A DNA stretch of 64,000 nt from Antedon mediterranea. Taxonomy: Eukaryota > Animalia > Echinodermata. The position numbers and the translations under genes are program-made. Under the pieces are notes generated by a model. The model did no database searches and was not told where the DNA came from. It saw only the letters and a list, made by a program, of their open reading frames with translations. The stretch spans positions 3,325,888 to 3,389,887 of the forward strand of contig NC_092676.1 in NCBI RefSeq assembly GCF_964355755.1, written 5' to 3'. Positions 882-60,494 of this stretch are shown here, piece after piece (within the stretch, counting starts at the first letter, position 1; every line of letters begins with the position of its first letter).

Positions 882-2456
882 ATGGCTCATCATCAACATT
901 GTACATTGTTGTTGTACAAGTGCCTGATTATATTATATAGTATATTTCACTGTTGCTGTGCAGAATCCTATACTTTTATAAAACATCCACATCCGGTTCT
1001 CGTTACGGAAGGACAAATAGTAACGTTCTCGTGTGAATGGACACCAGAATTGAATAGAAATCATGAGTTGAGATGGATATACTTTCCTGAAGGTAGAGCG
1101 TCTCAACAAATTGCAAGTTCAACATTAAAGTACAATTTAACAACTAAAGCAACATCTTCGTATCTTTCCATTTTCAATGTTGATTCTGATGACGTAGGAA
1201 AATACAGGTGTGATATCGTGGAAAATGGTTCTTACAGTCTTTCTAAACAGGCTGTTATAGTGCTAGGAGAAATAACATGCAATCCAGATTATGATAATGG
1301 TGAGATTGGAACAACGCTGACATGTTTTTATCCTTCTTCTTATCTTTCAAATGATATTGATTTACTATGGTATAAAGACTTCGGAAATAGAGTAATATCA
1401 TACACACAAGACAAAAACGTTTTAGAATCAAGGGCTTTGACTGCCGAAGACGATGGAGCTGAATTTAGATGTCTTATAATTTTTAAAATTAGATCTATAA
1501 CGATAGGATTTTGTAAAACTACTCCCCTAATATTGACTATTGATGCAGAGATTGAACAATCACCACCAGGTCCACTTCAGGTTGGAGATAGCTTTAACCT
1601 TACCTGCTCAGGGAAAGGTAATCCTGATTATTATGAATATGAGTGGGTGTGGAATGGCAACCCAGTAGGATCGTCGATAGATAAACGTAGATTTGCAATA
1701 GCTAGTGTGCTTACTATACCGAGTGTATCAAGCAGTGCTAATGGCAAAATAGTTACTTGTACTATTAGTCGTAGTGGTCGTAACAGCAGTACAGCGAGCT
1801 ATACAATAAACGTTCTAGAGAACATTAGGAGTAGGCCTACTACTACACAATTACAAACAACACCAGGTAGACGTACGCAACAAGTCGTTGCAGACAAACT
1901 ACTACCAACTACACGCTTACACACTACACGTTTACAGTCGACACGTACGCAACAACTCATTACAGACCAACTCTCAGCAACTAATATCTCATCGGGTGAC
2001 GAGCCCCCAACACTAATGGTTGTTATTAGTGTACTTGCAATTTCACTCGTAGTTTCTTTAATATTAATAATATACATGTATTTACAAAAGAGGAACTTAG
2101 CTAGGGACAACACAATTTCTTCAAAACGACCGTCGACTAACATTGGGCACAATTACGATTACATTACGTCATCAGACACACACGTGACTACGGCAGTCAA
2201 TGACATAGATAATAAATACGATTATGCCGTATATCCGTGCACAAGAAATGAGAAAAACGTCACTGCTGAATATATTGAGGTAGTCAACTTTTCCAAAGAT
2301 GACCCAGCAAAACCAGAAAGTAATATCACGGCTGAGTACGATAACGTTGCATTGCAACCAGCAGATATTTGCAGCGAAGAGCCAAAGTACGAAAATAATA
2401 AACTACGTGTTAAACGCTACAAGCATGACAACGTTAACGGCACATCAGATTATTAA
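882..2456 (+). CDS. Ig-superfamily type I membrane receptor, copy 1 (signal peptide, 3 Ig domains, S/T stalk, TM, tail class A)
   Basis: Uninterrupted 524-aa ORF. Signal peptide MAHHQHCTLLLYKCLIILYSIFHCCCA; V-like domain SCEW..W..DDVGKYRC; second domain LTC..LLWYK..LTAEDDGAEFRC; third domain FNLTCSGKGNP..YEW..IVTC; TM LMVVISVLAISLVVSLILIIYMYL followed by QKR; tail motifs NYDYI, YDYAV, EYIEV, EYDNV, KYEN. Confidence 0.9.
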   Translation: MAHHQHCTLLLYKCLIILYSIFHCCCAESYTFIKHPHPVLVTEGQIVTFSCEWTPELNRNHELRWIYFPEGRASQQIASSTLKYNLTTKATSSYLSIFNVDSDDVGKYRCDIVENGSYSLSKQAVIVLGEITCNPDYDNGEIGTTLTCFYPSSYLSNDIDLLWYKDFGNRVISYTQDKNVLESRALTAEDDGAEFRCLIIFKIRSITIGFCKTTPLILTIDAEIEQSPPGPLQVGDSFNLTCSGKGNPDYYEYEWVWNGNPVGSSIDKRRFAIASVLTIPSVSSSANGKIVTCTISRSGRNSSTASYTINVLENIRSRPTTTQLQTTPGRRTQQVVADKLLPTTRLHTTRLQSTRTQQLITDQLSATNISSGDEPPTLMVVISVLAISLVVSLILIIYMYLQKRNLARDNTISSKRPSTNIGHNYDYITSSDTHVTTAVNDIDNKYDYAVYPCTRNEKNVTAEYIEVVNFSKDDPAKPESNITAEYDNVALQPADICSEEPKYENNKLRVKRYKHDNVNGTSDY

Positions 2457-3885
2457 AAAACTCAAACCGATTTAATTAATTATATAAAAATATTTTTTCT
2501 CCAAACTAGAGACCAACGTTTATTTTAATATTGGTCTCTAACTAATGTTAAACGTAGAAAATATATTCAAGAAAGTACCGAATCAAAATCAAGGAAGAGT
2601 GAGATTCTTTTCTGATCTAAATTATATGTAAACGAGCAACACAAAACAATAAGGAAGGAAAGGAGTTTTACGAAAAGATTATCTCAAGGTTTCAAAGCAG
2701 GTACAGTACTATGATTGGTTCACGATCAAGTGCCGGTCCGGTCACGTGTTCAGTTTTACATTCACTTTCAAATAATGTTTTATACAATCAATCCGGGTTC
2801 CGACGAGCACACCCCAAAGAAAAAATCGAGTGAGTTCAATCAGTCATTAGAAAGGATTAATGTTGACTTTGGTTAAACTTTGCTACCTAGTTATTTTCGA
2901 CGATGATATTTGAACATGTTTTGTGCGCATGCGCTGAAAGTATATACGTAATATCACATTACACCGAATGTTTCATGAGACATAGTAAGTCTTATATCGA
3001 TTTAACTTGAAGAAACCGACGAAAACCATTATAGAAATTCAGCAAGGAAATCAAAATAACAAATGGCATAATAAAAAGCTAAAAAAGAAAAGAAAAACAA
3101 ATAATAATCGTTGAATATTTATCCACACAAACTGTGAAGTTGAGTACACAAAGAATACAAGAGATGTTAATACAGTATAGTGAAATATTACTCTATTTTA
3201 TCACATTCAATATCAGTGTGCAGAATTATTGTAAAACAAGTTTCTCCACGCCCAAAAGAAAAGAGGACGAAAACCAAAATATTATGACAGAATTGAAAAC
3301 TAGTAAAAACGGTATAAAAAACATCTTACTTTAACCGTTAACACGACAGGCAAGAAAAAGTTTGTTTCAACCAATCACAGTCACGAACAACTCAGCATTT
3401 ACAACTTAAACTGACCATAACGGTTCCAATTGATAGACGTACTTCACGCCCTCTGAAGGAAAAAAAATGAAAATGTATTAGGAAAGTATTTTTACAGTAG
3501 GTCTATTAAATCATTAATGTTGAATATTTAGTGAGACTGTTTCCTGGTATTTTATTTCTGTAGTGATCAAGGGTATCACTAGTGCTGAAGTAGATCATTC
3601 CAACTTATATAACAACAAAATAAACACACTTGTAGTGTCAACGTTTAATGTTTGACTACTAATATAGGATGTAACCGTATACGAAGTTGGATAAAATGTT
3701 GGATTGAAGTGTTTATAAATCTATGCATGCAATCTACATTTTTATAAGGAAGTTAACTTAAGGCAATGTTTGGAAGTCAGTCAAAGTGCCCGAGTCAGTG
3801 TTTTCTATTAGGCATAAAACAACGTGTGGGAACATCACAACATTATAATTGTTCATAATTAGCTACATTGAATGCAAAGCTTACA

Positions 3886-5582
3886 ATGGCTCATCATCAA
3901 TATTGTACATTGTTGCTTTACAAGTGCCTGATTATATTGTATAGTGTATTTGACTACTATTGTGCACAATCCTATACTTTTACAAAACAACCAAAATCTG
4001 TTCTTGTTGGACAAGGAAACACAGCATCGTTATCGTGTGAATGGACACCAGCATTGAATAAAAACCATGTCGTTTACTGGGCAGCATTCCCTCATGTTGG
4101 TGGGTCGCAAGCAATCGATAGGTCAACTTTAAAGTACAATTTAACAACTATAGAAACATCTGCATATCTTTCCATTCTTAATGTTAGTTACAAAGATGTA
4201 GGAAACTACAGGTGTGATATCTTGAATGGTGGTGATTCATACAATCTTTCACGAGAGGCTTCTGTAGTGCTAGGAGAAATAACTTGCAGTCCAGAGAATG
4301 ACAATGGTGAGATTGGAACAACGCTGACATGTTCTTATTTTTCTTCTTATTATTCACGTGATATTGATTTACTATGGTATAAAAACAGGAAACAAATTAC
4401 ATCAAAAGTACAAAAAAACAATGTTACAAAAACAGGAGCGTTGACTGTCGAAGACGATGGAGCTGTATTTACTTGTACAGCCAGACTCGCATCTCAACAT
4501 CAAGTGATAGGAACTTGTGAAACTATTCCGCTAGTATTGACTATAGATGCAGAGATTGAACAATCACCACCAGGTCCACTTCAGGTAGGTGATATCTTTA
4601 ATCTTACCTGCTCAGGGAAAGGTAATCCTGATTATTATGAATATGAATGGACATGGAATAACAAACCGATACAATCGTCGCCAAGTAAAAATCGATTTGC
4701 AATTGGCAATGTGGTTATTGTGAATAGTGTATCAAGCAGTGACAATGGCAAAATAGTTACTTGTACTATTAGTCGTAGTGGTCGCAACAGCAGTACAGCA
4801 AGTTATACAATAAACGTCTTAGAGCATGTGTTGAGTAAAGCTACATCTTTACAGTCGACATCAAGTACACGTGTACGTACAAATCCATTCCACGTCAAAT
4901 ATCAACAGCAACAGCCAATGTTCGAGATTACGTTTCAATGATAGCAGGTTCACACACAGCATCCTTTACTATCACGCAGCATTCCATTACCGACAACAAG
5001 TCCCAAATAGGCCTACAAACGGTTGTCATTTGCGTATGTGCAATTTTGCTCCTAGTTTCTGTAATAACAATAATAAACCTATGTGTGTATTTGCAAAAAA
5101 CAAAAAAGAAAAACACAATTCCTTCAGATCGAATCTCCAATAATCGACAGTCAAATAATGTTGGACATGTTTACGATTATTTTACATCATCTGGCATACA
5201 CGTGACCACGACAGCCAGTGACGAAGTTCAGTATGATTATGCTATTTACCCGGGCACACAAATCATCGAGGGGGTGAATAGCACGGAAAACGAATACGAG
5301 GTTGGTGTATTATCTTCACGTACTGATAGTTTCAGAAAAGTCTGCACAAGTGATAAAGAGCTTGAGTACGAACATGATGACACAATAGGCCTAGGCCTAC
5401 ATCTCAAAGATATGACAGGCACTAATACTTCCGAAAATACATTAGATATTAGGAACAAAATAATTAAACTATGTACGCGCCTGAATGCAGCTGGTGGCAC
5501 TGATGTAAACCTGTACGAAAATAAATCTGTATGTACAAAAGCAGTGACGTCAGCTACGACATCTTTTATACAAAAGAGATAA
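3886..5582 (+). pseudogene. Ig receptor copy 2 with a 1-nt frameshift in the stalk (pseudogene, secreted form, or sequence error)
   Basis: ATG at 3886; three Ig domains in ORF 3868-4941. The stalk, TM (VVICVCAILLLVSVITIINLCVYL) and tail continue in another frame (ORF 4938-5582). Alignment to copy 3 suggests a 1-nt loss near 4887 (ccattccacgt versus expected ccaattccacgt). Confidence 0.8.
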
Positions 5583-9157: not shown

Positions 9158-11053
9158 ATGGTTCATCATCAACATTGGGCATTGCTGTTTTACAAGTGCT
9201 TGATTATATTGTTTAGTATTTTTCACTGCTGTTGTGCAGCACGATCCTATAATTTTACAAAACAACCAGAATCTGTTCTTGTTGGACAAGGAATCACAGC
9301 AACATTATCATGTGAATGGGCACCAGCATTGAAGGAAACACATACGGTTGCATGGTCAGCATTCCCACGTGGTGGTACGTCTCATCTAATTGAAAGTTCA
9401 ACATCAAAATACAATCTAACAACTAAAGCAACCTTATCATATCTTTCCATTTTCAATGTTGGTTACAATGATGTAGGAAAATACAGGTGTGATATCTCGG
9501 ATGACAGTTTCAGTCTTTCTAAAGAGGCTTCTGTAGTTCTAGGAGAAATAGTGTGCAATCCAAAGAATGGCAATGATGAGATTGGAACAACGCTGACATG
9601 TTCTTTTACTTCTTCTCATCCTTCAAATAATATTGATTTACATTTGTATAAAGATGGACAATCAAATAAAACAGAAGTAAAACTACAACATAATAATATG
9701 TTAGAATCAAGGGATTTGACTGCCGAAGACTATGGAGTTCTATTTATGTGTAAAGCTACATTAGGAGGTGATGTGATAGGAACTTGTGAAACTACTCCGC
9801 TGCTGCCCATAGATGCAGAGATTGAACAATCACCACCAGGTACACTTCAGGTTGGTGATAGCTTCAACCTTACATGCTCAGCGAAAGGTAATCCTGATTA
9901 TTATGAATATGAATGGGCGTGGAATGACAAACCTGTACAATCTTCACCAAGCAAAAGACGATTTGCAATAGGTAATGTGCTTACTGTAGAGAGTGTATCA
10001 AGCAAAGCCAATGGCAAAATAGTTAATTGTACTATTAGTCGTGAAGATCGTAACAGTAGTATAGCAACCTATACAGTGAAAGTTTTAGAGCAAATGACTA
10101 CACGTTTGCAGTCGACATCTGGTACGCGTACGCGCAACTCAATTACGCGTCAACTATCAACCAACCTCCCTGATGACGAGTCCCCAAAAGTAACGACTAC
10201 ACGTTTACAGTCGACACTAGGTACACGTACGTACAAGCCAATTACCGTCAGACTATCAGAAACTAATTTCCAGGATAATGATTCTACAATTGTAATCATT
10301 GTCATCATTGGCGGAGTTGCGATAGCTCTTGTGAGTTTGATAACAGCATTTATAATTTACTTTTTAAAGAAAAGGCACAAGAAACAGTACGACAAAGAAG
10401 AGACAAAACCCGAAAATGTACCATTGGAAAAACCAGTGTACGGTAACACAGAACAAAACATTAACAGTTCTGAAATAGATAATGACCTATGTGAAAATGT
10501 GGAGACAATGTACGCAGAACCTGACATGTCAGAAAATGGTTGGCATATCAAATATAACACGCCACAGAATGCAGTAAACATTCATAAAACTGATGATTCT
10601 TTAGGTAAGTCAATGAAACCTAATGGAACGAGTGATGCTAAGCCGAGAAAAACGACAAGTGCCGAAAGTACAGATGCAATACAAGTAAAACCGATCAAGG
10701 CCCACAGTAAAGAAATTATTGAAGATTTGTATTCTAAGCCCAACAAACGGAATGCGAAAACGCTGATCGAGGCCCACAGCCAAGAGAATATTGAAGATCT
10801 GTATACTAGGCCTAATAAACCGACTGCAAGCAGACCAACCAAGGCCCACAATGTTAAAGAAAGTCTGGAAGATCTGTATTCTAAGCCCAACAAACCAACG
10901 ACAAGAACGCCAGAAATTACGCACGAAGATCCTACTAAGAAAAATGTAGAAGGCTTATCGTACGCAGAAATAGAGTTTAAAAGCGGTACGTTCCCAGCTC
11001 CTGGACCACAGGACTACGGGCTTGATTACGCAACTGTACAGATTAAGAAGTAA
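9158..11053 (+). CDS. Ig receptor copy 3, tail class B (ITIM-like)
   Basis: Intact ORF (ATG 9158) with three Ig domains and TM IVIIVIIGGVAIALVSLITAFIIYFL. Tail has VYGN, MYAEP, three EDLY(S/T)(K/R)PNK repeats, LSYAEI and C-terminal LDYATV. Confidence 0.9.
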   Translation: MVHHQHWALLFYKCLIILFSIFHCCCAARSYNFTKQPESVLVGQGITATLSCEWAPALKETHTVAWSAFPRGGTSHLIESSTSKYNLTTKATLSYLSIFNVGYNDVGKYRCDISDDSFSLSKEASVVLGEIVCNPKNGNDEIGTTLTCSFTSSHPSNNIDLHLYKDGQSNKTEVKLQHNNMLESRDLTAEDYGVLFMCKATLGGDVIGTCETTPLLPIDAEIEQSPPGTLQVGDSFNLTCSAKGNPDYYEYEWAWNDKPVQSSPSKRRFAIGNVLTVESVSSKANGKIVNCTISREDRNSSIATYTVKVLEQMTTRLQSTSGTRTRNSITRQLSTNLPDDESPKVTTTRLQSTLGTRTYKPITVRLSETNFQDNDSTIVIIVIIGGVAIALVSLITAFIIYFLKKRHKKQYDKEETKPENVPLEKPVYGNTEQNINSSEIDNDLCENVETMYAEPDMSENGWHIKYNTPQNAVNIHKTDDSLGKSMKPNGTSDAKPRKTTSAESTDAIQVKPIKAHSKEIIEDLYSKPNKRNAKTLIEAHSQENIEDLYTRPNKPTASRPTKAHNVKESLEDLYSKPNKPTTRTPEITHEDPTKKNVEGLSYAEIEFKSGTFPAPGPQDYGLDYATVQIKK

Positions 11054-13643: not shown

Positions 13644-14243
13644 TAATGCTGGTTGGACCAAAAATAGATCGGAAATGAAAAATCGGAACATAAAGGCTTG
13701 CTTCTAATAGTGTTCTCTATGTCTTGTCGTCACTTGGAGGGTAAACATATTATTATGTACACTTCTCTCCCAGGCATTCTTTTTTTTGCTAAATCTTCTA
13801 TTTACAAAATCAATTGTATATTAATTAAATACTTAGATTTGACACAAAAATGAAACACCAGCTTGTAGGCTGCAGGAATACTGGAAAGCTCTCTCTAAAA
13901 GTTCATCTTTATTACCATAAAAAAGGATTTTTTTCTCACTACAAACTATATAAAAGAGTAGGTGATTGTTTGCAGTTTTTTATTTTCACTGGAGTTTCAT
14001 GATTTGAGGTATGGTTTTTGCAAATTTTATAACTAAAAGCTAGGCTGCAAAGTTGAAAATCAAGCATACCTATTTCTGAAGAACAAAGGAATAAAGCCAG
14101 TATTGTAACCTACTTGAAAAGTGTTATGTAAGAAGTTCTGGGCTGGACAAACTAAGCCTTTGTTTAAATTCGCATCCTGTTTATATTGAACTGACTCATA
14201 GGCACAAACAAGCCCACTGCCCGTTTTAAACTTGACTCTTACA

Positions 14244-15641: not shown

Positions 15642-15674
15642 GAAATAGGCAATGAGGGTTTAGCCGTAAATTCT

Positions 15675-19132: not shown

Positions 19133-19133
19133 C

Positions 19134-24460: not shown

Positions 24461-24464
24461 CACC

Positions 24465-27825: not shown

Positions 27826-29525
27826 ATGGCTCATTCTCAATATTGGACATTGCTGTTCTTCAAGTTTCTGATTATATTTCATATATCTCACTGTTGTCGT
27901 GCACAGTACTACAATTTTACAGAACATCCACAATCGGTTCTCGTGTGACGCTATCGTGTCAATGGACACCAGCATTGAATAACAACCATCTCGTAACATG
28001 GAAATACGATCGTGTTAATAGTCCTAAACGAATTGAAATTTCAGATACAAAATACGCATTAATGAACGAAGCAACATCTTCAAGCCTTTCCATTTCTAAT
28101 GTTGGCTCTGGTGACGTAGGCAACTACATTTGTGAGATCTTCGAATGTGATTCATACAACAGTGTCTCATCTTCTACATTTGCTTCTCTAGTATTAGGAG
28201 AATTGATATGTAATCCGGAGAATATTGTTGATATAGGAACAACGCTGATATGCTCCTTCACCTCTTCTGATAATTCATATATTATTAATTTACTATGGTA
28301 TAACAACGGAAAACAAATAACTTCGGGACAACAACAAAACAATGATTTAGAATCAACGGCTATGACTGCCGAAGACGAAGGAGGTGTATTTACTTGTAAA
28401 GCCACCATCGGATTTCAAAGTCAAGCGACAGGAACTTGTGAAACTACTCCACTAGTATTTCCAATAGATGCAGAGATTCAACAATCACCACCAGGTCCAC
28501 TTCAGGTTGGTGATAGCTTTAATCTTACCTGCGTAGGGAAAGGTAATCCAGAAAATTATAATTACGAATGGACGTGGAATAACAACCCAGTAGAATCTAT
28601 GACAGATAGTCGATTTGCAATTGGCAATATGGTTATTGTGAATACTGTATCAGGCAGTGACAATGGCAAAATGGTTTCTTGTACTATTAGTAGTGGTGGT
28701 TACAGAAGTATAGCGAGCTATACAATAAACATTTTGGATCAGACGTCGAGTACAACTACAAGTATGTCGACACCAGATAGGCCTACACGTACGCAAAAAC
28801 CAATTACGGCGGTCAGACTCACCATACCTGATGACCCGGATGACATTTCAACAACAGTAATGACTACACGTTTAAAGTCGACACTAGATACACGTACGCA
28901 AAAACCAATTACGGTCAGACTCACAACACATAATGTTCCGGATGACATTTCAACAGCAGCAATGACTACACCAGGTACACGTTTGCAAAAACCAATTACA
29001 CATCAACTCACAACACATAAAGTCTCGGAAGACGTTTCCGCAACAGTAGACCTAATGAATACACGTTTAAACACAACACCTGTTACTGTAACGCGTTCTA
29101 TTACAGAAATCCTAACGGTTGTAATTATCGTAGTTGCAATTTTACTCGTCGTTTCTTTGATAATAATAATAAGCCTATGTGTTTATTTGCAAAAAAGAAA
29201 AAAGAAAAACACAACTCCTTCAAATCGACTGTCAAATAATCTTGAGCACGTTTACTATGACATTACGTCATCTAGCGCACACGTGACCTCGACAGCCAGT
29301 AACACTAAGTATGATTATGTCATACACCCGTTCACACGAAATACGGAAGAATCCACTCCTGAGTACCTTGAATTGGACGATGGTTTCCAAGATGGCGCAC
29401 CAAAATCAGCAAGTAATACAGCCGCTGATTACGATGATGTTGCATCGGAACAAACAGATACTAATAACAAAGAGTACAAATACGAAAACGGTATGCTGCG
29501 GGATAAAGGTATCAGAGAGACATAA
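27826..29525 (+). pseudogene. Ig receptor copy 4, frameshifted near the start of the V domain
   Basis: ATG 27826 reads MAHSQYWTLLFFKFLIIFHISHCCRAQYYNFTEHPQSVLV*. A deletion at ~27945 shifts the frame; the rest (3 Ig, repeated stalk, TM, tail with VYYDI, YDYV, EYLEL, DYDDV, KYEN) is open in ORF 27804-29525. Confidence 0.85.
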
Positions 29526-33937: not shown

Positions 33938-35816
33938 ATGGCTCATCATCAATATTGTACATTGCTGTTGTACAAGTACCTGGTTATATTGTATAGTATA
34001 TTTCACTGTTGTTGTGCACAATCCTATACTTTTACAGAACATCCACAATCGGTTCTTGTTGCAGAAGGACAAACAGCAAATATATCGTGTGAATGGACAC
34101 CTAAATTGAATGAAACCCATCATGTTGCATGGAGATACTATCCTTTTAGTACAAGAACGGATCAAATAATTGAACGTTCAACGTCAAAATACATTTTCAG
34201 AAAAGGTACAACATTTTCAAATCTTTCCATTTTGAATGTTGATCCTAATGATGTAGGACACTACCGGTGTCGTATCTCCAAAGGTGATGTTGTATACATT
34301 TTTTCTGAATTTACTTATGTAGTGATAGGAGAGTTAACGTGTAGTCCAGAATATGATAATGGTGACATAGGAACAACGATGACATGTACTTATACTTCAT
34401 CTGATCCTGTATATATTATTGATTTACTATGGTATAAAGAGGGAAATGAAATTACTTCAGCAGCACAACGAAGTAATATCAAAGAATCAAGGACTTTGAC
34501 TAGTGAAGACGATGGAGCTGTATTTACTTGTAAAGCTATCCTCGGTTATCAAGTGATAGGAACTTGTGAAACTACTCCTCTAATATTGACTATAGATGCA
34601 GAGATTGAACAATCACCACCAGGTCCACTTCAGGCTGGGGATAGGTTTACCCTTACCTGTTCAGGGAAAGGTAATCCTGATTATTATGAATGGACGTGGA
34701 ATGGCAAACTTATAGGATCGTCGACAGATAAAAGGCGATTTGCAATAGGTAATGTGCTTACTGCGACGAGAGTATCAAGCAGTGCCAATGGCAGAATAGT
34801 TACTTGTACTATTAGCCGTAGTGGTCGTACCAGCAGTACAGCGAGGTTTACATTAAACGTGCTAGAGAACATTTCCAGTAGGCCTACTACTACACATTTT
34901 CAAACAACACCAACGCAACAGGTCGTTACAGACAAACTACTACCAACTACACGCTTACACACTACACGTTTACAGTCGACACGTACGCAACAAGTCGTTA
35001 CAGACAAACTACTGCCAACTACACGCTTACGCACTACACGTTTACAGTCGACACGTACGCAACAAGTCGTTAATGACAAACTACTACCAACTACACGCTT
35101 ACACACTACACGTTTACAGTCGACACGTACGCAACAAGTCGTTACAGACAAACTACTGCCAACTACACGCTTACCCACTACACGTTTACAATCGACACGT
35201 ACGCAACAAGTCGTTACAAACAAACTACTACCAACTACACGCATACACACTACACGTTTACACACTACACGTTTGCAGTCGACACGTACGCAACCATTCA
35301 TTAAAGACCAACTCTCAACTAATATCTCATCGGTTGACGAGCCCCCAACACTAATGGTTGTTATTAGTGTACTCGCAATTCTACTCGTAGTTTCTGTAAT
35401 AACAACGATATACATGTATTTGCAAAAAAAAAAACGTATCTAGAGACAACATAATTCCTTTAAATAGACCACCGAATAATATTGAACACAATTACGATTA
35501 CATTGTGTCTTCAGACACACAGATCAACACGACAGGCAAAGACACACACACGTATGATTATGCCATATATCCGTGTACACGAATCACAGAGAACATCAGT
35601 GCTGAATACATTGAAGTAGAAGACAGTTCCCATGAGGGCCCACAAAAACCAGAACAAAATATGACCGCAGTCGAGAACGATGATGTTTCCTTACAACCAA
35701 CGGATATTTGCAGCAAAGAGGCCATGTACGAAAATGGTAAATTGCGTATCAAAGGCATAGCAACTTCTGACAAGGTGACAATTAAGTACGAAAATATTAA
35801 AACATCTACGCGTTAG
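33938..35816 (+). pseudogene. Ig receptor copy 5 with an expanded mucin-like stalk and a +1 frameshift in a poly-A run after the TM
   Basis: ORF 33929-35443 has 3 Ig domains, stalk repeats and TM. A11 at 35424-35434 replaces the 10-nt A6-G-A3 of paralogs; tail class A continues to TAG at 35816. Confidence 0.8.
34913..35292 (+). repeat. Coding minisatellite, 72-bp unit (TQQVVTDKLLPTTRLHTTRLQSTR), about 5 copies
   Basis: Units start at 34913, 34985, 35057, 35129 and 35201. Copy 1 has a single unit. Confidence 0.92.
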
Positions 35817-38135: not shown

Positions 38136-38212
38136 GATATAAGAAGTTTTATAACTCGTGGACAACAATATCTAAATGCAAACTAAAAATAAAACCTTAA
38201 GAACGAATTTAT

Positions 38213-40815: not shown

Positions 40816-42259
40816 ATGGCTCATCATCATTGCTTGTTGTGCCTGATTGTATTGTATAGTATATTTTACGACTGTTTTGCTCGAATTTATATTTTCACAG
40901 AAGATCCAAAATTGGTTCTTATTGCAAAAGGAAACACAGCAAGGCTATCGTGTGCATGGACACCAGAATTGTATGAACTGCATAACTTTGAATGGATATT
41001 ATTCCCTCTGAATGGTGGTGAGCCTCAATCAATTAGAATGTCAAATTCAAAATACAATCTAACAAATGACGCAACATCTTCGAATCTTTCCATTTCCAAT
41101 GTTGATTTCCATAACGCGGGAATATACAGGTGTGATATCACCGGAATAAATGAATACAGTTTTTCTAATGAGGCTTCTGTAGTGATAGGAGAAATAACGT
41201 GCAATCCAGAGAATGATAATGGTGAAATAGGAACAACAGTGACATGTTCTTATCCTCCTTCTTATCCTTCAAATGATATTGATTTACGATGGTATAAAAA
41301 CGGAAATATAGTAATATCAGACACACAAGTCAAACACGTTTTAGAATCAAGAGCTTTGACTGCTGAAGACGATGGAGCTGTATTTACTTGTAAAGCTTTT
41401 ATCTGAAATCAAGTGATAGGAACTTGTCAAACTACTTGTAAAGCTTCAATCGGACCAAAACGTCATGTGATCGGAACTTGTGAGACTACTCCGCTAGTAT
41501 TGAATATAGATGCAGAGATTGAACAATCACCGCCTGGTCCACTTCAGGTTGGTGATAGCTTTACCCTTACCTGCTCAGTGAAAGGTAATCCTGATTATTA
41601 TAAATATGAATGGACGTGGAATGACAAACCTGTAGGATCGTCACCAAATGAAAGAAGATTTGCAATAGTGAGTGTGCTTATTGTGAAGGATGTAACAAGC
41701 AGTGACAATGGCAAAATAGTTACTAGTTATAATAGTTACTACTAATAGGTACTATTAGTCGTAGTGGTCGTGACACTAGCACAGCGAGCTATACAATAAA
41801 CGTGCTTGAGAATTTTTTGGGTAGGCCTACAACTACACAATTGCAAACAACACCAGGTAGACGTACGCAACAAGTCGTTACAAACCAACTATCAGAAACT
41901 AATATCTCTTCGGGTGACGAGCCCCCAACACTAAAGGTTGTTATTAGTGTACTTGCAATTTTACTCGTAGTTTCTGTAATATTTATAATATACACGTATT
42001 TGCAAAAAAGAAACGTATCTAGGGACAACATAATTCCTTTAAATCGACCATCGAATAATATTCAACACAATTACGATTATGTTGCGTCTTCAGACCCACA
42101 GATCACCACGACAGACAATGACACACACACGTATGATTATGCCATATTATCCGTGTACACGCATCGCAAAAAAACCCAGTTCTGAATACATTGAAGTAGA
42201 AGACAGTTCCCATGAGGGCCCACAAAAACCAGAACAGAATATGACCGCATTCGAGAACG
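40816..42259 (+). pseudogene. Ig receptor copy 6 (5' part), multiply disrupted
   Basis: ATG 40816; in-frame TGA at 41404; duplicated loop segment 41384-41490; micro-duplication frameshift at ~41725-41750; breaks at 42259 within tail class A. Confidence 0.88.
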
Positions 42260-45539: not shown

Positions 45540-48500
45540 ATGTATACATTTAATAAAACAAACAAAAACAAACAGCTTAAAGAATATGTTTGTAAACAAT
45601 GAAACCCATAAAATTAAGACTTTTGCAACTTACTTATATAGGGCATAGGATAAAAGAAAAAAATCTGTATGTCCGTAAATAATATAAATTTTACTATGTG
45701 AAATGGGCCTGAAGCCATTGTTTATTGAAATAAAAGAAAGAAAGAATAACATAGTATAAAATGACTCCAAGTAACAATGCTTACAAAACAAAGGAGGGGC
45801 CAATGCGGGTTGAGGGTTACACATTTACTGTTATTACACCTAGGTCTAGTTTTGCAGCTAAATCTAGTGTTCCTTAGTTTAGAAAATCAAATCGTAAACC
45901 ACGCTCTCTAAGAGAAGACAGGCACTTAAGCAGTAAGTGTATCTTCTTCTAATTACTGTATTTGACAATGCAGTGTTAATGTTCAGAATTGTGTAATTCT
46001 TATTCTTGTCAGCATTTATCAGGTATTCCTGCCGTGTGTGGCAGCAGATAGCAACTTGCATAAAAGAAACAGGTATGATGAAAAGTTTTAGTTCTAAGTT
46101 ACTCGATAGGGGGCGGTATGCATTACTAGTTTTACCTATATAGAATGGAATATGTTAAAATAACTGTATACAGGTTACGTAGTTGATGCTAATATCACTT
46201 TAGCAGGAGTACGCTACAATACAGTACACAGTAATCTGAGTGTTTAAACAGAGTATATTTTTCAAACCTTCTTCCCAAGGCTTCTTTTTAATATTATGTT
46301 AGCGTAGATATTTCATTTTATTTATTCATGGTCAAACATAGTAAATACACACATGAAATTATTTTTGTTTGTTCAAAGTTAAAAATTCAAATAAAAATAC
46401 AAAAATGATGTTAAAATATACTATATCCTTATTCCATAATGAATAACAAAATTAGATTTTATTGAATATATAACTGTTTTTTTATAGATTATGTAGGCCT
46501 GATTTATTGTTATTATAAGAGAGCAAACAAATTTGATTTTTAATAAAGAGGATTTTTCAAATGTCTGTTGACAAATTGAAGCATTTATTTATTAAAGCAA
46601 CTGAGATCAACAGTAACGGCAATAAGAAAGGAAAAAATGGTCTATAATGGTTCTCTCTAAAACCTCGACTAATACGTCATTAGATTTGTATATAGATAAA
46701 ATATAGATATTCAACTATAAGCAAGAACTTAATTATTGAGAAACCAGAAAAGGGAAGGTATGAAGTATTAGAAAATAATAAGCAAGAATTGAAATCGTTC
46801 AGGAAAAAAAGTAAGCAAACATAAGCATCCTAACGTGACCACCAAAATGGTCTATGGTGGTTCTCTAAAACCTCGAATATACGTCATTAGATTTGTGTAT
46901 AGATATAATATAGATTTTCAACTATAAGCAAGAACTTAATTATTGATAGTTATTTACACGTTACAATTTTTTAATATGCTTTTAATAAATAAAAGGTATC
47001 AGGTATTACACACGTTGAAAAGAAATCTATCTTATTCTTTACTAATTTTTATTATAAGAAGATAGCAAACAACTTTAACCTAATAAACTTAATGAAGGTA
47101 ACACATTGAAAGTGAAACTATTAATTTGTGTTGATACTTTTTACTTGTTATTTAAGGAAACAATAACACTAGATTATTAACGAGCAATACGAAAACCACA
47201 GATTTATTAAATTGGTGTTTTTAACCGGTGATTTTGCGCTGCCTTTTAAATAACCAGTTACCACAAATTTGTCCTGTTTCTGCTCCCAAGAAAATGGAGT
47301 TAATTTATTCACACCGATTTTAATTTATTCACACCGATTTTAACCGATTGTTTTTAAGCAGCAGAAACAGGCCCTTAGTTTAACTAGATTAATCCAAGGC
47401 TACAATTAGATGGAAACATATACATATATTTATGTTTAGTTTGTTTCTGATAGTCCCTCCAACTCCTCCCCCACTCTATACCAGGCGGAGTTTGCGTCTA
47501 TTTCAGATATTACATCGTTTGCATTTAATTCTGGTGTCCATTCAAACGATAACGTTGGTTTGTTTGTTTGTTTTTATTGATTTTCCACACAAAATGAATA
47601 TGATAATTAAGTAACAATAAACATATAAATATATATATATAAGAAAGATGTGTGGCTTGTGGGCAAATAAGTTCAAAGAACTTTAAGGCTTACCCACCAG
47701 AAAAGATACAATAAACATTATCAAGTATGACGAGTAATTAATACATAGTAAGAATATAAAATAAGAAGTAAAAATACATAAGTAAAATAAAAAATTTAAA
47801 AAGTAGATAAATAAGAAAAACAGTAGTATAAGTTATTAAAATGAATCATAAGTGTTTTAAACTTTAGCATTTTCACAAGTAATAATAAGTTACGTAGTAT
47901 TCAAGTACTAATAAATTATTTATTATATTCAGAGACTAAAAGCTTTTTGTAGTTGTATTTAAAACTAGAAACTGTACATTTTCTTTTTAACTCTTGGTGT
48001 TTGTCTTTTCAGACAGTCCATTTGTGAACTATAAAACTTTGTAGTCAATGTAAGTTTGTATACATTATATAATTTAGGGTACTTATATTATAATTCGTTA
48101 CCTTAACCAATAATATGTTGATATATAATTTACTGGCATTATTGTTCGGTCATTGTACCCTTTTACCCACATCTATGAAAGTGAAAATAAAACACGATAC
48201 CGAACCACTTGATAAATCAATAAATTTTAAAATAGTTTCGTAAAACTTCCTACTTTCCTAATTCCTGTGTTATTCTTAGAACATCAAATCGTAAACCACG
48301 CTCTATAAGAGGAGAAGACAGACACTTAATCAGTAATTGTATCTTTTCATAAAAGAACAATATCTTTCTATATATATTTAAATCAATAGTATGTTGAAAA
48401 TACTGTATTTGACAATGCAGTGTTAATGTTCAGAATTGTGTAATTCTTATTCTTGTCAGCATTTATCAGGTATTCCTGTCGTGTGTGGCAGCAGACGGCA

Positions 48501-48883: not shown

Positions 48884-51183
48884 ATGGCTCATCATCAACA
48901 TTGTACATTGCTGATCGTTATATTGTATACAATTTTTTTACTGCTGTTGTGCACAAACCTATACTTTTACAAAACATCCACAATCGGTTCTCGTTACGGA
49001 AGGGCAAACAGCAACGTTGTCGTGTGAATGGACACCAGCACCAACACATGACGTTTTATGGTCTTTTTTCCCTCGTGTTGGTACGCCTAAATTAATTGAA
49101 AGTTTAACATTAAAATACAATGTAATAAGTAAAGCAACATCTTCAAATCTTTCCATTTTTAATGTTTATTCTGATGACGTAGGAAGATACAGATGTGATA
49201 TCTTGGATGGTGATTCATACAGTCTTTCTGAACTTGCTTCTGTTTAGTGCTAGCAGAAATAACGTGCAATCCAGAGAATGGCAATGGTGAGATAGGAACA
49301 ACGCTGAAATGTTCTTATATTTTGTCTCATCCGTTAGATAATGTTGATTTATTATGGTACAGATATGGAAGTGTAATTGAATCACATCACAAACAAATGC
49401 ATGTTTTAGAATCAAGGGTTTTGACTGCCGAAGACGATGGAGCTGTATTTACTTGTAAAGCCACAATGGGATCTCAAGTGATAGGAACTTGTGAAACTAC
49501 TCCGCTAATATTGAACATAGATGCAGAGATTGAACAATCACCACCAGGTCCACTTCAGGTTGGTGATAGCTTTAACCTCACGTGCTTTGGGAAAGGTAGT
49601 CCTGATCCTGGTAATTATATTTATGAATGGATATGGAACAACATTTCTGTAGATTCTTTGAAAAGTAATTGGCGATTTGCAATAAGCAATGTATTTACTG
49701 TGAAGAGTGCGACAACCAAAGACAATGGTGAAATAGTTACTTGTACTGTCAGTCGTGATGGACGTGACAGCAGTACAGCGAGCTATATAATAATAAAACA
49801 TTTCGGAGATTCCATTGAGTATATTAACTACACCTTTGCAATATTCTGTTACAGACCTATTACCATCAACCAATGTCTCGGACGACGAACCTCCAAAACT
49901 AACGATTGTCGTTGGTGTCGTAGCTCTTGTGATTTTGATAACAGCAATTATAATATACTTTTTACACAGAAGGCGCAAGAGCAATCAGTACGTCAACAAA
50001 ACAAAACCAATGACCCTACAATTACAGCCAAATTGTGGTCACATGGAACAACAAATTACATTTGTTGACAACAGAAATATACAAACTTCAGCAAGCAAGA
50101 GTCTAACACACAAGATACCAGTATGCATGAAAACCCTACCGTGTCAGCACAGGACACAATAAAAGAAAAGTATTATATGGTATCGGTAGACATTCACAAC
50201 CATGGAATCACTACAACATGCAACAGAAATGAATGTGATAGTGTGGATTTAACAACAGACAAGCACAATACTAAAATGGCAGCTGAAAGAGACAGCCAAA
50301 ATGACTGTGATTATGTGGAGTCAGCAACAGACAATCACAACATTGAAACCATCACATCAGGTAGCGTAAATGAGTATGATTATGTGGAAACATCATGCAA
50401 TGGAGCTAGAGTGAAGACTATCGGAAAAAACATTGAACTTGCCGATGACAACAGCAATTGTCCCAAGAGAAAGCCACTGAAAACAGAGAATAATAAGCCT
50501 ACAACGACTAAGTACAATAATGATTCAATGTCACAAGCAGATGTTTCCAGAAATGCCAGAGCTAATGATGAATTGTCCAAAAACAGTAAATTGCATCACC
50601 TCAAAGATATCACAAGCATGGCAACATCTGACGACCAGAACATGTATGAAAATGTTAAAATGCCGCGATTGAGGAAAGATAAAGTACTGCTTACAGTTAC
50701 AGGCAGTAGAGAAGATGACGTCACCACGGTACACGACGTGAATACAAAACCCAATACAAACGTGTACGAAAATTTATTTATTTTTTATTTATTTTCCACA
50801 TTTATTTAGTCATCAATTACAGTACATCATAATTACAGTACAACTGAAAACAGGGATCCTGCATAAAAAAGCTGTAGCTTCGTTTTTTTGTAGGACCCTT
50901 TGCTTCGATGTCAAAAACATGTGTTTCCAGAAAAAACAGAACCAACGATAAAGAGGCTGAGTATGAAAACAGTAAACTGCATCTTAAAGATATCACAAGC
51001 CTGACAACATCTGACGACCAGAACATGTACGAAAATGTGAAACGTGTGTTACGGAGACTGAGAAAAGATGGAGTAACCGTCATGGACAACCGCGAGGATG
51101 ACGTCACCCTAGTGCACGCGAATACACATGTGTACAAAAATGCACCAATACGAACAAAAGCAGTGAAGTCTGCTAAGAAATAA
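48884..51183 (+). pseudogene. Ig receptor copy 7 with several frameshifts and a long Tyr-repeat tail
   Basis: ATG 48884; shifts at ~48935 (T7), ~49245, ~49800 and ~50120. Pieces encode the V domain, domains 2-3, TM IVVGVVALVILITAIIIYFL, and tail motifs EYDYV, MYENV, VYEN and EYEN. Confidence 0.88.
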
Positions 51184-52029
51184 AACAAGTAAAACAGAAC
51201 CAAACGTACAGAATATTCATACAAACACAAGCAATAAGGGGTGTGACTTATTCTCAAGTAGTAAGTATTGTAAGACTAGTACGGACCATGACAGTTCCAT
51301 GGTACGATAAATAGAAAAGTAGGCTAAATATATACGTTGACATCTTGAATTATTATAGCAGAAACAAATATTATAAAGTATATATAGCAACATAGGCATA
51401 AGTGTCCTAATTTGACATCATTTGTTTAAATAGATAAAAAAAACACAAAAATGAAAGTATGCGTAATCGTCAAAGTGGTCTGTGTTGGTTCTCTATAAAA
51501 CATCGACTGTAGATTTTATATAAATATAATAGTTATAGATAATAAACTTTAAGGAACAACTTAATTATTGACAAACCAGAAAAGGGAAGATACGAAGTAT
51601 TAGAAATATTTAGCAAGAATTTAAAATAATACAGGAAAAAAAGTAAGCAAACATAGGTTACCTAACGTGACCGTCAAAATGGTCTATGACGGTTCTCTCT
51701 AAAACCTCGACTATACGTCATTATATTTGTATATAGATATTCAACTATAAGCAAGAACTTAACTATTGATAGTTATATACACGTTACAAGTTTGTAATTT
51801 TGTGAATATAGGCATATGCATTTAATAAATAAATAGTATCAGATGTTACAAACGTTATAAAGAAAGTTATCTTGTTCTTTATTATTTTTTTAATAAAAGA
51901 TAGCAAACAACTTAACTTAATAAAGTTAATGAAGGGAAAACATTGAAAATGAAACGTTTTGATAATTTGCTACTATGTTATTTAAGGAAACAATAACATT
52001 AAATTATAACCGAGCAATTCTTTAAATTA

Positions 52030-53601: not shown

Positions 53602-55311
53602 ATGACTCATCATCATTGCTTGCTGTGCCTGATTGTATTGTGTAGTATATTTTACGAATGTTTTGCACAAACATATGTCTTCACAGAAGACCCGAAATCG
53701 GTTCTTGTTGCTGAAGGAAACCCAACAATTCTATCGTGCGCATGGAGGCCAGAATTGGATGAACGAAATACCTTTCAATGGTCATTTTTCCCTCAGAATG
53801 GTGGTGAGCCTCAATCAATTAGAATGTCAAATTCAAAATACAATCTAACAACCGACGCAACATCTTCGAATATTTTCATTTCCAATGTTGATTCTAATTA
53901 CGCGGGAAAATACAGGTGTGATATCAGACACGGCGATACAGACATTCTTTCTAAACTGGCTACTGTAGTGCTAGGAGAAATAACGTGCAATCCAGAATAT
54001 GATAATGGTGAAATAGGAACAACGATGACATGTTCTTATACTTCTTCTTATCTTTCAAATTTGATTTATTTACAATGGTATAAATCAGAAGAACAAGTAC
54101 AATTAGACACCCAAGACAAACACGTTATAGAATCAATATTTTTGACTGCAGAAGACGATAGAGCTGTATTTACTTGTAAAGCTATACTCGAAAATCAAGT
54201 GATAGGAACTTGTGAAACTACTCCGCTAATACTGACTATAGATGCAGAGATTGAACAATCACCACCAGGTCCACTTCAGGTTGGAGATAGCTTTAACCTT
54301 ACCTGCTCAGGGAAAGGTAATCCTGATTATTATAATTATACATGGATGTGGAATGACAAACATGTAGGATCGTCGCCAGATAAAAAAAGATTTGCAATAG
54401 GTAATGTGCTTACTATGACAAGTGTATCAAGCAGTGCTAACGGCAAAACAGTTACTTGTACTATTAGTCGTGATGGTCGTAACAGCAGTACAGTGAGCTA
54501 TACAATAAATGTTGCAGAAAATACGCAAAGTACAACTGCACGTTCACGCACAACACAAGGTAGGCCTACTGGTACAGACCTACTATCAGCAACAACATTA
54601 TTATCAACCAAACTATCAGCAAACAATGTCACGTACGACGAGCCACAAACATTGATTATTGTCATTGGCGTAGTTGCAACAGTTATTGTGATTTTGATAA
54701 CAGCAATTGTAATTTACATTTTACATAAAAGGCGTAAGAAACAGGATGGCAACAAAACAAAACCCGAAAGTGTACCATTGAAAGAACCAATGTATGGTAA
54801 CACTGATCAAGACATTAACACTTCTGAAAAATCATGCGTACAAAATGGCCCTCGGAGTGAAAAGTTGACAACAGATTTTACAGTATATGATGAGCCTACG
54901 ATTTCAAGTTCAAATACTCAGTTGGATACTATGTACGCCGAACCTGATACGTTAGTAACTGGTCACGATGCTAGGTATGACACGCCACGGAACGCTATAA
55001 GTCTTGATAATGTCGATACAGCGAATACTGATGAAGCGAATGATGCAAAGCCAAGAAAAACAAAAAGCAGAGAAAGTATAGATGCAATGTACGCGAAACC
55101 GAACAAATCTCGCAGTACAGAAAGTATTGATGATCTGTATGCTACGCCCAACAAACCGACTGCAAGAACGCCAGTGATTACCCGTGAAGATCCTACTAAG
55201 AAAAACATAGAAGGTCTAACATACGCAGATATAGAGTTTAAAGGCGGTACGTTTCCAAACCCTGAACCACAGGACTACGGACTTGATTACGCAACCGTAC
55301 AGATTAAGTAG
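53602..55311 (+). CDS. Ig receptor copy 8, tail class B (ITIM-like)
   Basis: Intact 569-aa ORF with 3 Ig domains and TM LIIVIGVVATVIVILITAIVIYIL. Tail motifs MYGN, VYDEP, MYAEP, RYDTP, MYAKPNK, LYATPNK, LTYADI and LDYATV. Confidence 0.92.
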   Translation: MTHHHCLLCLIVLCSIFYECFAQTYVFTEDPKSVLVAEGNPTILSCAWRPELDERNTFQWSFFPQNGGEPQSIRMSNSKYNLTTDATSSNIFISNVDSNYAGKYRCDIRHGDTDILSKLATVVLGEITCNPEYDNGEIGTTMTCSYTSSYLSNLIYLQWYKSEEQVQLDTQDKHVIESIFLTAEDDRAVFTCKAILENQVIGTCETTPLILTIDAEIEQSPPGPLQVGDSFNLTCSGKGNPDYYNYTWMWNDKHVGSSPDKKRFAIGNVLTMTSVSSSANGKTVTCTISRDGRNSSTVSYTINVAENTQSTTARSRTTQGRPTGTDLLSATTLLSTKLSANNVTYDEPQTLIIVIGVVATVIVILITAIVIYILHKRRKKQDGNKTKPESVPLKEPMYGNTDQDINTSEKSCVQNGPRSEKLTTDFTVYDEPTISSSNTQLDTMYAEPDTLVTGHDARYDTPRNAISLDNVDTANTDEANDAKPRKTKSRESIDAMYAKPNKSRSTESIDDLYATPNKPTARTPVITREDPTKKNIEGLTYADIEFKGGTFPNPEPQDYGLDYATVQIK

Positions 55312-58593: not shown

Positions 58594-58994
58594 ATAACTT
58601 GAAACCGGAAATCCAGTTTTTTCTGTATATACCATGTTACGAGCCTGACGTTCCAATACAGTGATTTAGAATACAGGAATCAGATCGAGTGAGTGTTTAA
58701 ACTAGTACCATTTCTATCAAAGTAGATTATTTCTGTATTATATCGTAGCATTTTACAATACACCAGTGATAAGAAACAGTAAAATCATAATCGAAAGTGT
58801 TCTTAAACTGGATAAAACTTCTATCACAATGTATACAGTTTTACATTGTATTAAGTATCTTTAAATCATCGGAATCCAGTATTTCTCAACGTTTTTATTC
58901 CGTACCAACAATCTCTATTTTGATAAGGAAATTGATTTACACTAATCTATAGCAATATTTGGAACTCAACCATCGGAAGGAACTACAAAGTGTA

Positions 58995-60494
58995 ATGGCT
59001 CATCCCCAACATTGGACATTGCTATTTTACAAGAAGTGTCTGATTATATATTATAGTATATTTTACTGCTGTTATGCACGATCTTATACTTTTACAAAAC
59101 ATCCACAATCAGTTCTCGTTGCAGAAGGACAAACAGCAACGTTGTCATGTGCATGGTCACCAGCATTGAATGGAAACCATGATTTTGCATGGTCTTATTT
59201 TCGACCTGGTATTAACATTCAACGAATTGATGGTTTAAATGCAAGATACAATATAATAAATGAAGCAACCTTTTCAAATCTTTCCATTTTCAATGTTGGC
59301 TCTTTTGAAGTAGGAAGATACAGGTGTGATATCTTTGACGATGACGCTTCATACATTCTTTCTGAGCAGGCTGTTGTAGTGCTAGGAGAAATATCGTGCA
59401 ATCCAGAATACGACAATGGTGAAATAGGAACAACGATGGCATGTTCTTATATTTCCTCTTATAATGTTAATGCTATTGATTTATTATTTTATAAGAACGG
59501 AAAAATAATTACATCAGAAGTACAAGATAATGTTTTAGAATCAAGGGCTTTGACTAGCGAAGACGATGGAGCTGTATTTACTTGTAAAGCTATACTCGAA
59601 AATCAAGTGATAGGAACTTGTGAAACTACTCCCCTAATATTGCCTATATATGCAGAGATTGAACAATCACCACCAGGTACACTTCAGGTTGGAGAAAGCT
59701 TTAATCTTACCTGCTCAGGGAAAGGTAATCTTGATTACTATGAATATGAATGGATGTGGAGTGGCAAACCTGTAGGATCGTCACCAAATGAAAGGTCATT
59801 TGCAATAGGTAACATGTTTATTGTGAAGGATGTATCAAGCAATGCCAATGGCAACATAATTACTTGTACCATTAGTCGTAGTGGTCGTAACAGCAGTACA
59901 GCGAGGTATACAATAAACGTTCTAGAGAATATTTCGAGTAGGCCTACAACACCAGGTAGACGTACGCAACAAGTCGTTACTGACAAATTCTCAGCAACTA
60001 ATATCTCATCGGGTGACGAGCCCCCAACACTAATGGTTGTAATTAGTGTACTTGCAATTTTACTCGTACTTTTTGTAATAACAACAATATACATGTATTT
60101 GCAAAAAAGAAACGTATCTAGGGACAACATAATTCCTTTAAATAGACCATCGAATAATATTGGACACAATTACGATTATGTTGCGTCTTCAGACACACAG
60201 ATCACCACGACAGGCAATGACACATACACGTATGATTATGCCATATATCCGTGTACACGTATCGCAGAGAACATTAGTGCTGAATACATTGAAGTAGAAG
60301 AGAGTTTCCATGATGGCCCACAAAAACCAGAACGAAATATGACCACATTCGAGAACGATGATGTGTCCTTACAAGCAACGGATATTTGCAGCAAAGAGGC
60401 CACGTACGAAAATGGTAAATTGCGTATCAAAGGCATAGCAACTTCTGACAAGGTGACAATTAAGTACGAAAATATTAAAACATCTACGCGTTAG
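58995..60494 (+). CDS. Ig receptor copy 9, tail class A
   Basis: Intact ORF (ATG 58995) with 3 Ig domains, short stalk and TM. Tail motifs NYDYV, TYDYAI, EYIEV, TYEN and KYENI. Confidence 0.92.
   Translation: MAHPQHWTLLFYKKCLIIYYSIFYCCYARSYTFTKHPQSVLVAEGQTATLSCAWSPALNGNHDFAWSYFRPGINIQRIDGLNARYNIINEATFSNLSIFNVGSFEVGRYRCDIFDDDASYILSEQAVVVLGEISCNPEYDNGEIGTTMACSYISSYNVNAIDLLFYKNGKIITSEVQDNVLESRALTSEDDGAVFTCKAILENQVIGTCETTPLILPIYAEIEQSPPGTLQVGESFNLTCSGKGNLDYYEYEWMWSGKPVGSSPNERSFAIGNMFIVKDVSSNANGNIITCTISRSGRNSSTARYTINVLENISSRPTTPGRRTQQVVTDKFSATNISSGDEPPTLMVVISVLAILLVLFVITTIYMYLQKRNVSRDNIIPLNRPSNNIGHNYDYVASSDTQITTTGNDTYTYDYAIYPCTRIAENISAEYIEVEESFHDGPQKPERNMTTFENDDVSLQATDICSKEATYENGKLRIKGIATSDKVTIKYENIKTSTR

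Follow-up and report, generated by a model that had tools for sequence, protein, structure and literature searches.

Diversifying selection on the distal immunoglobulin domain, probably on one predicted face, in a tandem cluster of candidate paired-type receptor genes of the echinoderm Antedon mediterranea

What do the variable immunoglobulin (Ig) domains encoded by a run of similar genes in the echinoderm Antedon mediterranea recognize, and do they do it in the manner of antibodies? The window analysed is a stretch of 64,000 nucleotides (assembly GCF_964355755.1, contig NC_092676.1, forward-strand positions 3,325,888 to 3,389,887; coordinates below count from its first letter). It holds nine receptor copies, g1 to g9, in tandem and in one orientation, all on the + strand, each laid out as a leader specifying a signal peptide, three Ig domains (D1 distal, D3 membrane-proximal), a Thr-rich stalk, a transmembrane (TM) segment and a tyrosine-rich tail. 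The coding region of the intact copies is a single open reading frame (ORF) without introns. Four copies are intact (g1, g3, g8 and g9) and five are broken, g4, g6 and g7 inside the ectodomain and g2 and g5 downstream of an open one, and there is a tenth leader fragment. A preliminary description saw hypervariability like that of the complementarity-determining regions (CDRs) of antibodies in a distal V domain, set against a near-invariant membrane-proximal domain. As set out below, diversifying selection almost certainly acts on D1, and quite probably its target is the front-sheet (GFCC′) face of the predicted fold instead of the CDR loops.

The peptide motifs that drew attention to the locus are where they were said to be: all nine ‘B-C’ motifs (the first at 1047) and all nine from behind YxC (the last at 59328-59360) were recovered, on the + strand and once each. 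In a codon alignment of the nine copies, with breaks masked and 306 of 338 columns kept (those filled in at least five rows), mean amino-acid identity is 53% for D1, 62% for D2 and 72% for D3, and columns with at least six residues number 9 of 100, 4 of 89 and 0 of 89, respectively. This is a real gradient of variability along the ectodomain, highest in D1. The near-invariance ascribed to the membrane-proximal domain does not survive the 72% identity of D3, the last 60 codons of which are at 64%. The sole near-invariant stretch of the ectodomain is a 42-codon block at the D2/D3 junction, with 86% amino-acid identity. It includes the AEIEQSPPG peptide, which was rightly called nearly identical (mean amino-acid identity 98%), its 27-nucleotide codon string being exact in seven of nine copies, with one mismatch in another and two in the last. 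All copies have an extra Cys pair in D2 (e.g. g1 1266-1541) that is common to echinoderm and hemichordate relatives.

Site models of the non-synonymous to synonymous rate ratio (omega) on this alignment bear out the proposal of diversifying selection in the distal domain. For D1 in nine copies the likelihood-ratio test (LRT) statistic is 40.9 for M1a/M2a, 37.9 for M7/M8 and 37.3 for M8a/M8, with a selected class of omega 4.9-5.4 at 11% of sites, and F61 codon frequencies give a similar result. The statistic is 25.8 in the six intact ectodomains, 8.5 (p 0.014) in the four intact genes, 36.8 in gap-free columns, 27.5 with indel-adjacent windows removed and 43-64 on three other topologies; allowing double and triple substitutions leaves 13.9 (p 0.0009). 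No null simulation out of 103 (22 without recombination, 33 with conversion tracts and 48 with shuffled segments) reaches 40.9, the maximum being 10.6 and seven exceeding 5.99. D3 is not significant in nine copies (LRT 2.7), nor with multiple-hit substitutions allowed, and in the intact subsets reaches p 0.02 in M8a/M8 only.

Where the selected residues fall depends on what D1 looks like. In its model (predicted local distance difference test score 94.8) the strands are A, A′, B, C, a C′ of three residues, D, E, F and G; the C″ strand of V domains, with its CDR2-equivalent loop, is missing. The top structural matches are I-set (titin, Z 14.5, root-mean-square deviation 1.6, 87 aligned), and antibody V domains match the model with Z 12.6-13.0; Z alone does not decide between the sets, and the Pfam V-set and I-set profiles each match eight of eight D1s scanned. 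The spacing of the Cys pair is 57-59, against 64-71 in relatives. With these features D1 is predicted to be an I-set-like domain without C″, and the label ‘V domain’ is doubtful. The motif termed ‘F-G loop’ is mostly extended F/G hairpin with a two-residue turn in the model, and the ‘B-C loop’ motif is C strand for half its length. A model of all three domains (predicted template modelling score 0.55, Foldseek TM about 0.3) is too weak for domain geometry. The hallmark of Siglecs is an essential F-strand Arg directly after the Cys-equivalent position; here that column is Asp or Glu in eight of nine copies and Arg in one, and a conserved Arg precedes the Cys. A J-like FGxG or WGxG motif is present in none of the nine D1s, and a search of the window for recombination signal sequences gave no exact match and one loose 12-spacer match, intergenic at 30895, with no 23-spacer partner; somatic rearrangement was rejected for lack of a signal pair and of a J motif.

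The grid-averaged posterior exceeds 0.95 at six D1 columns (62, 64, 73, 76, 113 and 123), at one in D2 and at none in D3. The g8 codons tabulated below are those above 0.95; codon 53782, in the C strand, is additionally at 0.90-0.95. Eight sites exceed 0.9, with strand definitions taken independently from the D1 model: strands C, C′, F and G hold six of them and strands A, B, E and D none (hypergeometric p 0.015), the other two being the residue preceding the C strand and one CC′ loop residue. In the C strand, selected sites alternate about the core Trp. When the partitions are fixed, C, C′ and F positions of face parity have omega 2.54 vs 0.48 for core parity, and the loops give 1.93 for CC′, 1.00 for BC, 1.12 for the FG turn and 0.95 for C′D. 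Outward positions of GFCC′ have omega 2.41 vs 0.77 for those of ABED (p 8e-7) and vs 1.09 for the BC and FG loops together (p 9e-5), the last not different from 1 (p 0.65), and the GFCC′ excess holds in the six intact ectodomains too. Selection on CDR-like loops finds no support in the 10-codon windows originally proposed, where omega, at 1.33 and 1.37, does not differ from 1 (p 0.17 and 0.13). The signal sits on strand positions of outward parity in C, C′, F and G and on the CC′ loop, quite probably one face of the predicted structure, and not in the BC and FG loops.

The other part of the earlier proposal, homogenization of the remaining ectodomain, is weakly supported. Conversion-like tracts exist, the exact inter-gene ones reaching 93 nucleotides (at the D3 start), 64 and 56, and the D2/D3 junction holds 11 of the 14 longest; silent rates show no significant difference between domains, and there are also tracts in D1 and D2. 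A single synonymous rate for the three domains is not rejected (relative values 1.48, 1.26 and 1 for D1, D2 and D3; p 0.085), codons for the same residue differ at the third position by 0.164, 0.146 and 0.140, and the synonymous rate of the junction is not significantly different from that of the rest (p 0.13). Codons 218-232 have half the silent rate of the rest (p 0.066) and omega 0.08-0.25, scans of 15-42 codons for a dip in silent change yield p 0.25-0.53, and the sole significant silent window, of nine codons (p 0.015), is in D2. As equal silent rates are not rejected, purifying selection suffices for the junction, which is kept mainly by it with a possible share for conversion; homogenization of D3 as a whole was discarded on the same grounds. 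Recombination has occurred all the same: each domain tree rejects the other two (six of six approximately unbiased tests), the pairwise homoplasy index (PHI) over all sites has p 0.001, and tracts with global p <0.02 are g8/g9 in D2, g6/g8 in D1, and g1/g8 and g2/g6 in D3. The 56-nucleotide g6/g8 tract in D1 has global p 0.002 on all sites and is not significant on silent sites only. Conversion is patchy, D1 included.

The far ends of the genes are of two unrelated tail classes, A in g1, g2, g4, g5, g6 and g9 and B in g3, g8 and the TM region of g7. Class-A tails have the motifs YDYV, YIEV, YDNV and YEN; in g3 and in g8 the class-B tail carries five YxxP motifs plus two terminal matches to the consensus of an immunoreceptor tyrosine-based inhibitory motif, or ITIM, and the last 50 codons of g3/g8, which bear the ITIMs, have omega 0.21. 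By 5′ flank the genes pair differently, g2/g3 being 88%, g5/g7 90% and g6/g8 92% identical, and tails do not align between the partners of a pair, every 5′ sister pair joining one A and one B tail. The likeness of front ends covers flank and D1 in g2/g3 and g6/g8, and flank and leader only in g5/g7. The reverse is seen in g5 and g9, with 92% identity along about 1.2 kb (stalk end, TM, tail and 3′ flank), yet 72% in D1. Since 5′ sisters have unrelated tails, and g5 and g9 share back ends only, front and back gene ends have been re-paired. In addition, pieces resembling the g7 tail (YDYV, YENV) follow several stop codons, at 35868-37518, 50298-51235, 60549-60773 and 62330-62703, and may be orphan tail remnants or parts of formerly longer tails.

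From the sequences it is, on balance, probable that the locus is a tandem birth-and-death cluster of paired-type innate recognition receptors that bind foreign ligand. The GFCC′ face of D1 would bind a changing foreign ligand, such as a microbial adhesin or parasite protein; class-B tails would recruit phosphatases of the SHP/SHIP type and dampen signalling, and class-A tails, through YDYV, YIEV, YDNV and YEN, would bring in SH2 adaptors and be likely to activate. Within the single coding exon, unequal crossing-over and short conversions would re-pair ligand-binding ends with either tail, and the D2/D3 junction, held mainly by purifying selection, would probably be a rigid interface. Of what characterizes paired receptors, related ectodomains on unrelated tails and members of apparently inhibitory type with ITIMs (g3 and g8) are seen; an activating member with an immunoreceptor tyrosine-based activation motif (ITAM) or a charged TM residue is absent, other tyrosine motifs being present.

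Several points weigh against this account. Class A is taken to be activating from motifs of SH2-adaptor type; no ITAM was found in the 11 tail pieces examined and no charged residue within the TM core, and the class-A tails of g4 and g9 have one ITIM-consensus match each. As to re-pairing, g5 and g7 are not specially similar in D1 (74%), none of the three sister pairs has both partners intact in this assembly, and three mixed pairs have a chance of 8/84 = 0.095 under random tail assignment. PHI on third positions has p 0.75 and the silent-only tract test is not significant. The site models, fitted to nine paralogues, were coded by us in place of PAML. Nor does D1 alone show selection, D2 having a weaker signal (LRT 11.7, omega about 2.2); this falls to 2.6, not significant, with multiple hits allowed (M8a/M8 p 0.03), and D2 is significant in the six intact ectodomains (9.3) and four intact genes (8.7). 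All C, C′, F and G strand residues pooled have omega 1.07, and outward and inward positions were assigned by alternation about the core residues with no use of coordinates, an assignment first made once the posteriors had been seen.

Among other explanations the one that fares best, though unlikely, is a self/non-self or cell-identity code in which D1s pair with each other, within one paralogue or between matching ones, via the GFCC′ face and new specificities are favoured, as in allorecognition or gamete or neuronal recognition. The selected surface is that of adhesion by Hydractinia Alr, DIP/Dpr, nectins and Kirrel, the best structural matches include the first domains of RIG-5, DIP-alpha and Kirrel2 (Z 14.1, 13.3 and 12.9), and one relative is annotated Kirrel-like and another nephrin-like. 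Excerpts of a report on Alr describe genes that are also clustered, domain-shuffling and ITAM/ITIM-tailed (bioRxiv 2022.03.04.482883). However, allorecognition loci are highly polymorphic among individuals and g3 D1 differs at 1 of 372 bases in contigs of run X1 and at 0 of 289 in X2, thin evidence as this is, and the load of five pseudogenes in nine copies fits birth-and-death under external pressure. A second alternative, decidedly improbable, is relaxed constraint on surface residues of decaying, redundant duplicates, with omega above 1 an artefact of recombination, alignment or multi-nucleotide change. The five broken copies, the omega of 0.8 for D1 as a whole and the lowering of the LRT from 40.9 to 13.9 by multi-nucleotide changes speak for it; the signal nevertheless holds up when only intact genes or gap-free columns are used and when multiple hits are modelled, it lies above all null replicates, and the equally exposed ABED face shows no such excess. 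Pseudogene relaxation as the source of the signal was rejected, the intact-gene tests being significant and the omega of pseudogene branches not raised (0.68 vs 0.68 on others). Antibody-like recognition by CDR-equivalent loops at a V-domain tip, with the proximal domain homogenized by gene conversion, is largely refuted: loops that differ in sequence and length, one selected site at the BC loop end and two flanking the F/G hairpin, the massing of exact tracts at the junction and the halved silent rate of codons 218-232 suit it, but BC omega is 0.86-1.00 and FG 1.12-1.28, none different from 1, C″, FGxG and paired recombination signals are all missing, and D3 is neither near-invariant nor, at 0.140 vs 0.164 in D1, short of silent divergence.

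As to the kin of the paired-type cluster favoured here, proteins of the same layout with 24-33% ectodomain identity come from Diadema, Amphiura, Anneissia and Saccoglossus, annotated as uncharacterized, nephrin-like, peroxidasin homolog or Kirrel-like. A D2 with the motif E-D-x-G-x-x-F-x-C and the extra Cys pair, then an Ig domain, TM and a tyrosine tail, fits 7 of 166 fetched proteins, and the six named proteins with the D2 pattern belong to these genera, all echinoderm or hemichordate. These ambulacrarian three-Ig membrane proteins share with the window copies the domain order, D2 motif, extra Cys pair, TM and, often, ITIM tails, and differ in their longer D1. The nine window copies form their own clade against them (support 100/100, with long branches), which makes the expansion lineage-specific. 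No close relative turned up in word-index protein searches (none in 1719 candidates, 14 generic Ig matches in 7994 and eight generic in 7996), a HMMER scan gave 317 matches, all of the 150 listed being at or below 37% identity, and the ESM Atlas gave generic Ig clusters only, one of them commonest in Echinodermata.

Summed contig depth in the AEIEQSPPG bin is tens to about 100 times that of single exact contigs in four of four runs, which is only a hint of a large family, the depth not being a copy number. D1 of g1 was matched exactly over 357 bases in X2 and 442 in X5, keeping in mind that X2 and X5 are one sample, possibly the source of the window itself, and that contigs drop rare variants. 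The D1 matches fit germline diversity among paralogues, and somatic or allelic variation may exist in addition.

Tentatively, one may go further and suppose that an animal of the echinoderm line independently evolved a large paired Ig repertoire of perhaps about 100 single-exon genes, in which the conserved D2/D3 block is the crossing-over platform where selected ends are re-joined with inhibitory or activating tails. If so, it would be the first clustered, positively selected recognition system of the immunoglobulin superfamily (IgSF) for echinoderm immunity or allorecognition. In the portion of a 2026 review that treats them, the echinoderm immune expansions are TLR, NLR, scavenger receptors and SpTransformer (PMC13428168). 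An IgSF gene cluster under strong selection, some of its tails with ITIMs and others without, would add the vertebrate style of paired-receptor logic to the echinoderm branch and supply concrete candidates for pathogen recognition or allorecognition, with six or seven residues on one D1 face as named targets for mutagenesis. It also corrects a tempting reading, as variable Ig domains need not be antibody-like. The literature covered, which did not extend to the sea-urchin genome papers, held no description of this family; two of those papers (Rast 2006 and Hibino 2006) reportedly name a few V-type Ig genes of sea urchin, and absence from print is not established.

Table 1. Receptor copies and features within them, in window coordinates
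Feature	Position	Strand	Remarks
g1	882..2456	+	intact single-ORF gene; class-A tyrosine tail
g1 domains	D1 966-1265, D2 1266-1541, D3 from 1542	+	
D2/D3 junction block (g1 example)	1503..1628	+	contains AEIEQSPPG; 86% amino-acid identity, omega 0.19-0.25
g2	3886..5582	+	ectodomain open; stalk frameshift ~4840-4940 in this assembly
g3	9158..11053	+	intact; class-B tail, five YxxP motifs, two C-terminal ITIMs
g3 ITIMs	LSYAEI ~10955-10972; LDYATV ~11021-11038	+	consensus matches
g4	27826..29525	+	frameshift: 16-nt deletion in D1 ~27943; class-A tail
g5	33938..35816	+	ectodomain and TM open; class-A tail
g6	40816..42258	+	pseudogene; class-A tail; 5′ sister of g8
g7	48884..50809	+	pseudogene; class-B TM region, divergent tail
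g8	53602..55311	+	intact; class-B tail
g8 domains	D1 53671-53973, D2 53974-54240, D3 from 54241, TM ~54652-54714	+	
Selected D1 codons (g8)	53770..53958	+	53770, 53776 C strand; ~53806 CC′ loop; 53815 C′; 53926 F; 53956 G
g8/g6 identical 56-nt tract	53796..53851 vs 41010-41065	+	spans otherwise hypervariable CC′-C′-D region
g8 ITIMs	LTYADI ~55216-55233; LDYATV ~55282-55299	+	consensus matches
g9	58995..60494	+	intact; class-A tail
g10	63761..63873	+	tenth copy: leader and D1 start, ~110 bases, then unrelated sequence

The broken copies differ in their damage (Table 1). The TM and class-A tail of g2 are in a frame different from that of its ectodomain, so that g2 would either make a secreted protein or count as a pseudogene, and g5 is broken by a one-nucleotide frameshift in an A-run directly after the TM, at about 35424-35434. 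The lesions of g6 are a stop at 41404, a 54-nucleotide duplication, a 23-nucleotide insertion near 41725 and a frameshift in the tail, and those of g7 are frameshifts at about 48935, 49242 and 49795 and one in the tail. The end of the g6 tail is found inverted at 43910-44125, between identical 185-nucleotide repeats (42260-42444 and 44683-44867). The 5′ flank of g10 is 96% like that of g7; the copy is broken off at a TAA, and the window from 63873 to 64000 is unrelated to the receptor copies and may, from its likeness, be the end of a DNA transposon of the PIF/Harbinger type. A leader remnant at 33049-33207 and a 5′-flank remnant at 45775-46267 point to further lost copies. Stalk length differs via tandem repeats, of 72 nucleotides in g5 (34913-35262) and 102 in g4 (28784-28971), and a 72-nucleotide repeat in the g3 tail (10696-10896) multiplies one YxxP motif. 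In several copies CAG and then TGTTTATA stand about 10-15 bases 5′ of the ATG, e.g. at 33925-33937 and 40803-40815, and could be a candidate splice acceptor of an intron in the 5′ untranslated region.

The GC content of the window is 33%, and it has remnants of long interspersed nuclear elements (LINEs) and of Gypsy. One LINE has ORF1 with an SGNH/GDSL-like domain at 14202-15452 and an endonuclease at 15642-16850, and is split by a 9-kb insert after which it appears to resume at about 25851 (window 14202-26802). The insert carries Gypsy-type gag-pol and integrase ORFs (19221-22331 and 24404-25456) and is flanked by an 81-nucleotide exact duplication (16845/25699) and 103-nucleotide repeats (19033/25771). 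Between g5 and g6, at 38193-39490, is a remnant of another element without long terminal repeats (zf-RVT).

Judged by sequence and anatomy, the window family is a member of none of the CEACAM, Alr and FcoR families. The teleost NILT/NITR genes are said to be, like these, a tightly clustered Ig multigene family with ITIM tails, and to differ in being vertebrate, in having one or two V-type domains and in having ITAM forms; no sequence link to them was found. With the CEACAM receptors there is no sequence link among the PDB sequence matches and only a weak match (E 7e-5) elsewhere. Parallels with them are nonetheless several. For the Xenopus CEACAM paired receptors the sections available tell of non-synonymous change on the CC′C″FG face and of conversion that matches the N domains of partners (PMC5112662), and on the same partial basis CEACAMs of Xenopus and mammals resemble the window genes as clustered IgSF members with diversification of an N-domain face, similar ends on different tails, conversion and pseudogenes. 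In contrast to CEACAM, the window genes have uninterrupted coding, one orientation, no ITAM and a D1 without C″.

Hydractinia Alr, in what the excerpts give (bioRxiv 10.1101/2022.03.04.482883), is an invertebrate Ig-Ig-Ig-TM cluster, with domain shuffling, pseudogenes and tyrosine-motif tails that include ITIMs, all as here; it differs in its V-set first domain, its Fn3-like spacer, the presence of ITAMs and the shuffling of exons. The window genes have instead a Thr-rich stalk, canonical Ig motifs and shuffling inside one exon, and their stalk, Thr-rich and repetitive, had no Fn3 match in the seven copies scanned. Botryllus FF/FcoR is, according to those passages of its description that bear on the point (PMC12582321), also an IgSF system of an invertebrate deuterostome with intergenic recombination and swappable ITIM and other tyrosine motifs. 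It is unlike the window genes in its Sushi domains, its pairs of receptor and co-receptor genes and its swapping of motifs by alleles and splicing, while in the window genes a single chain bears both ends.

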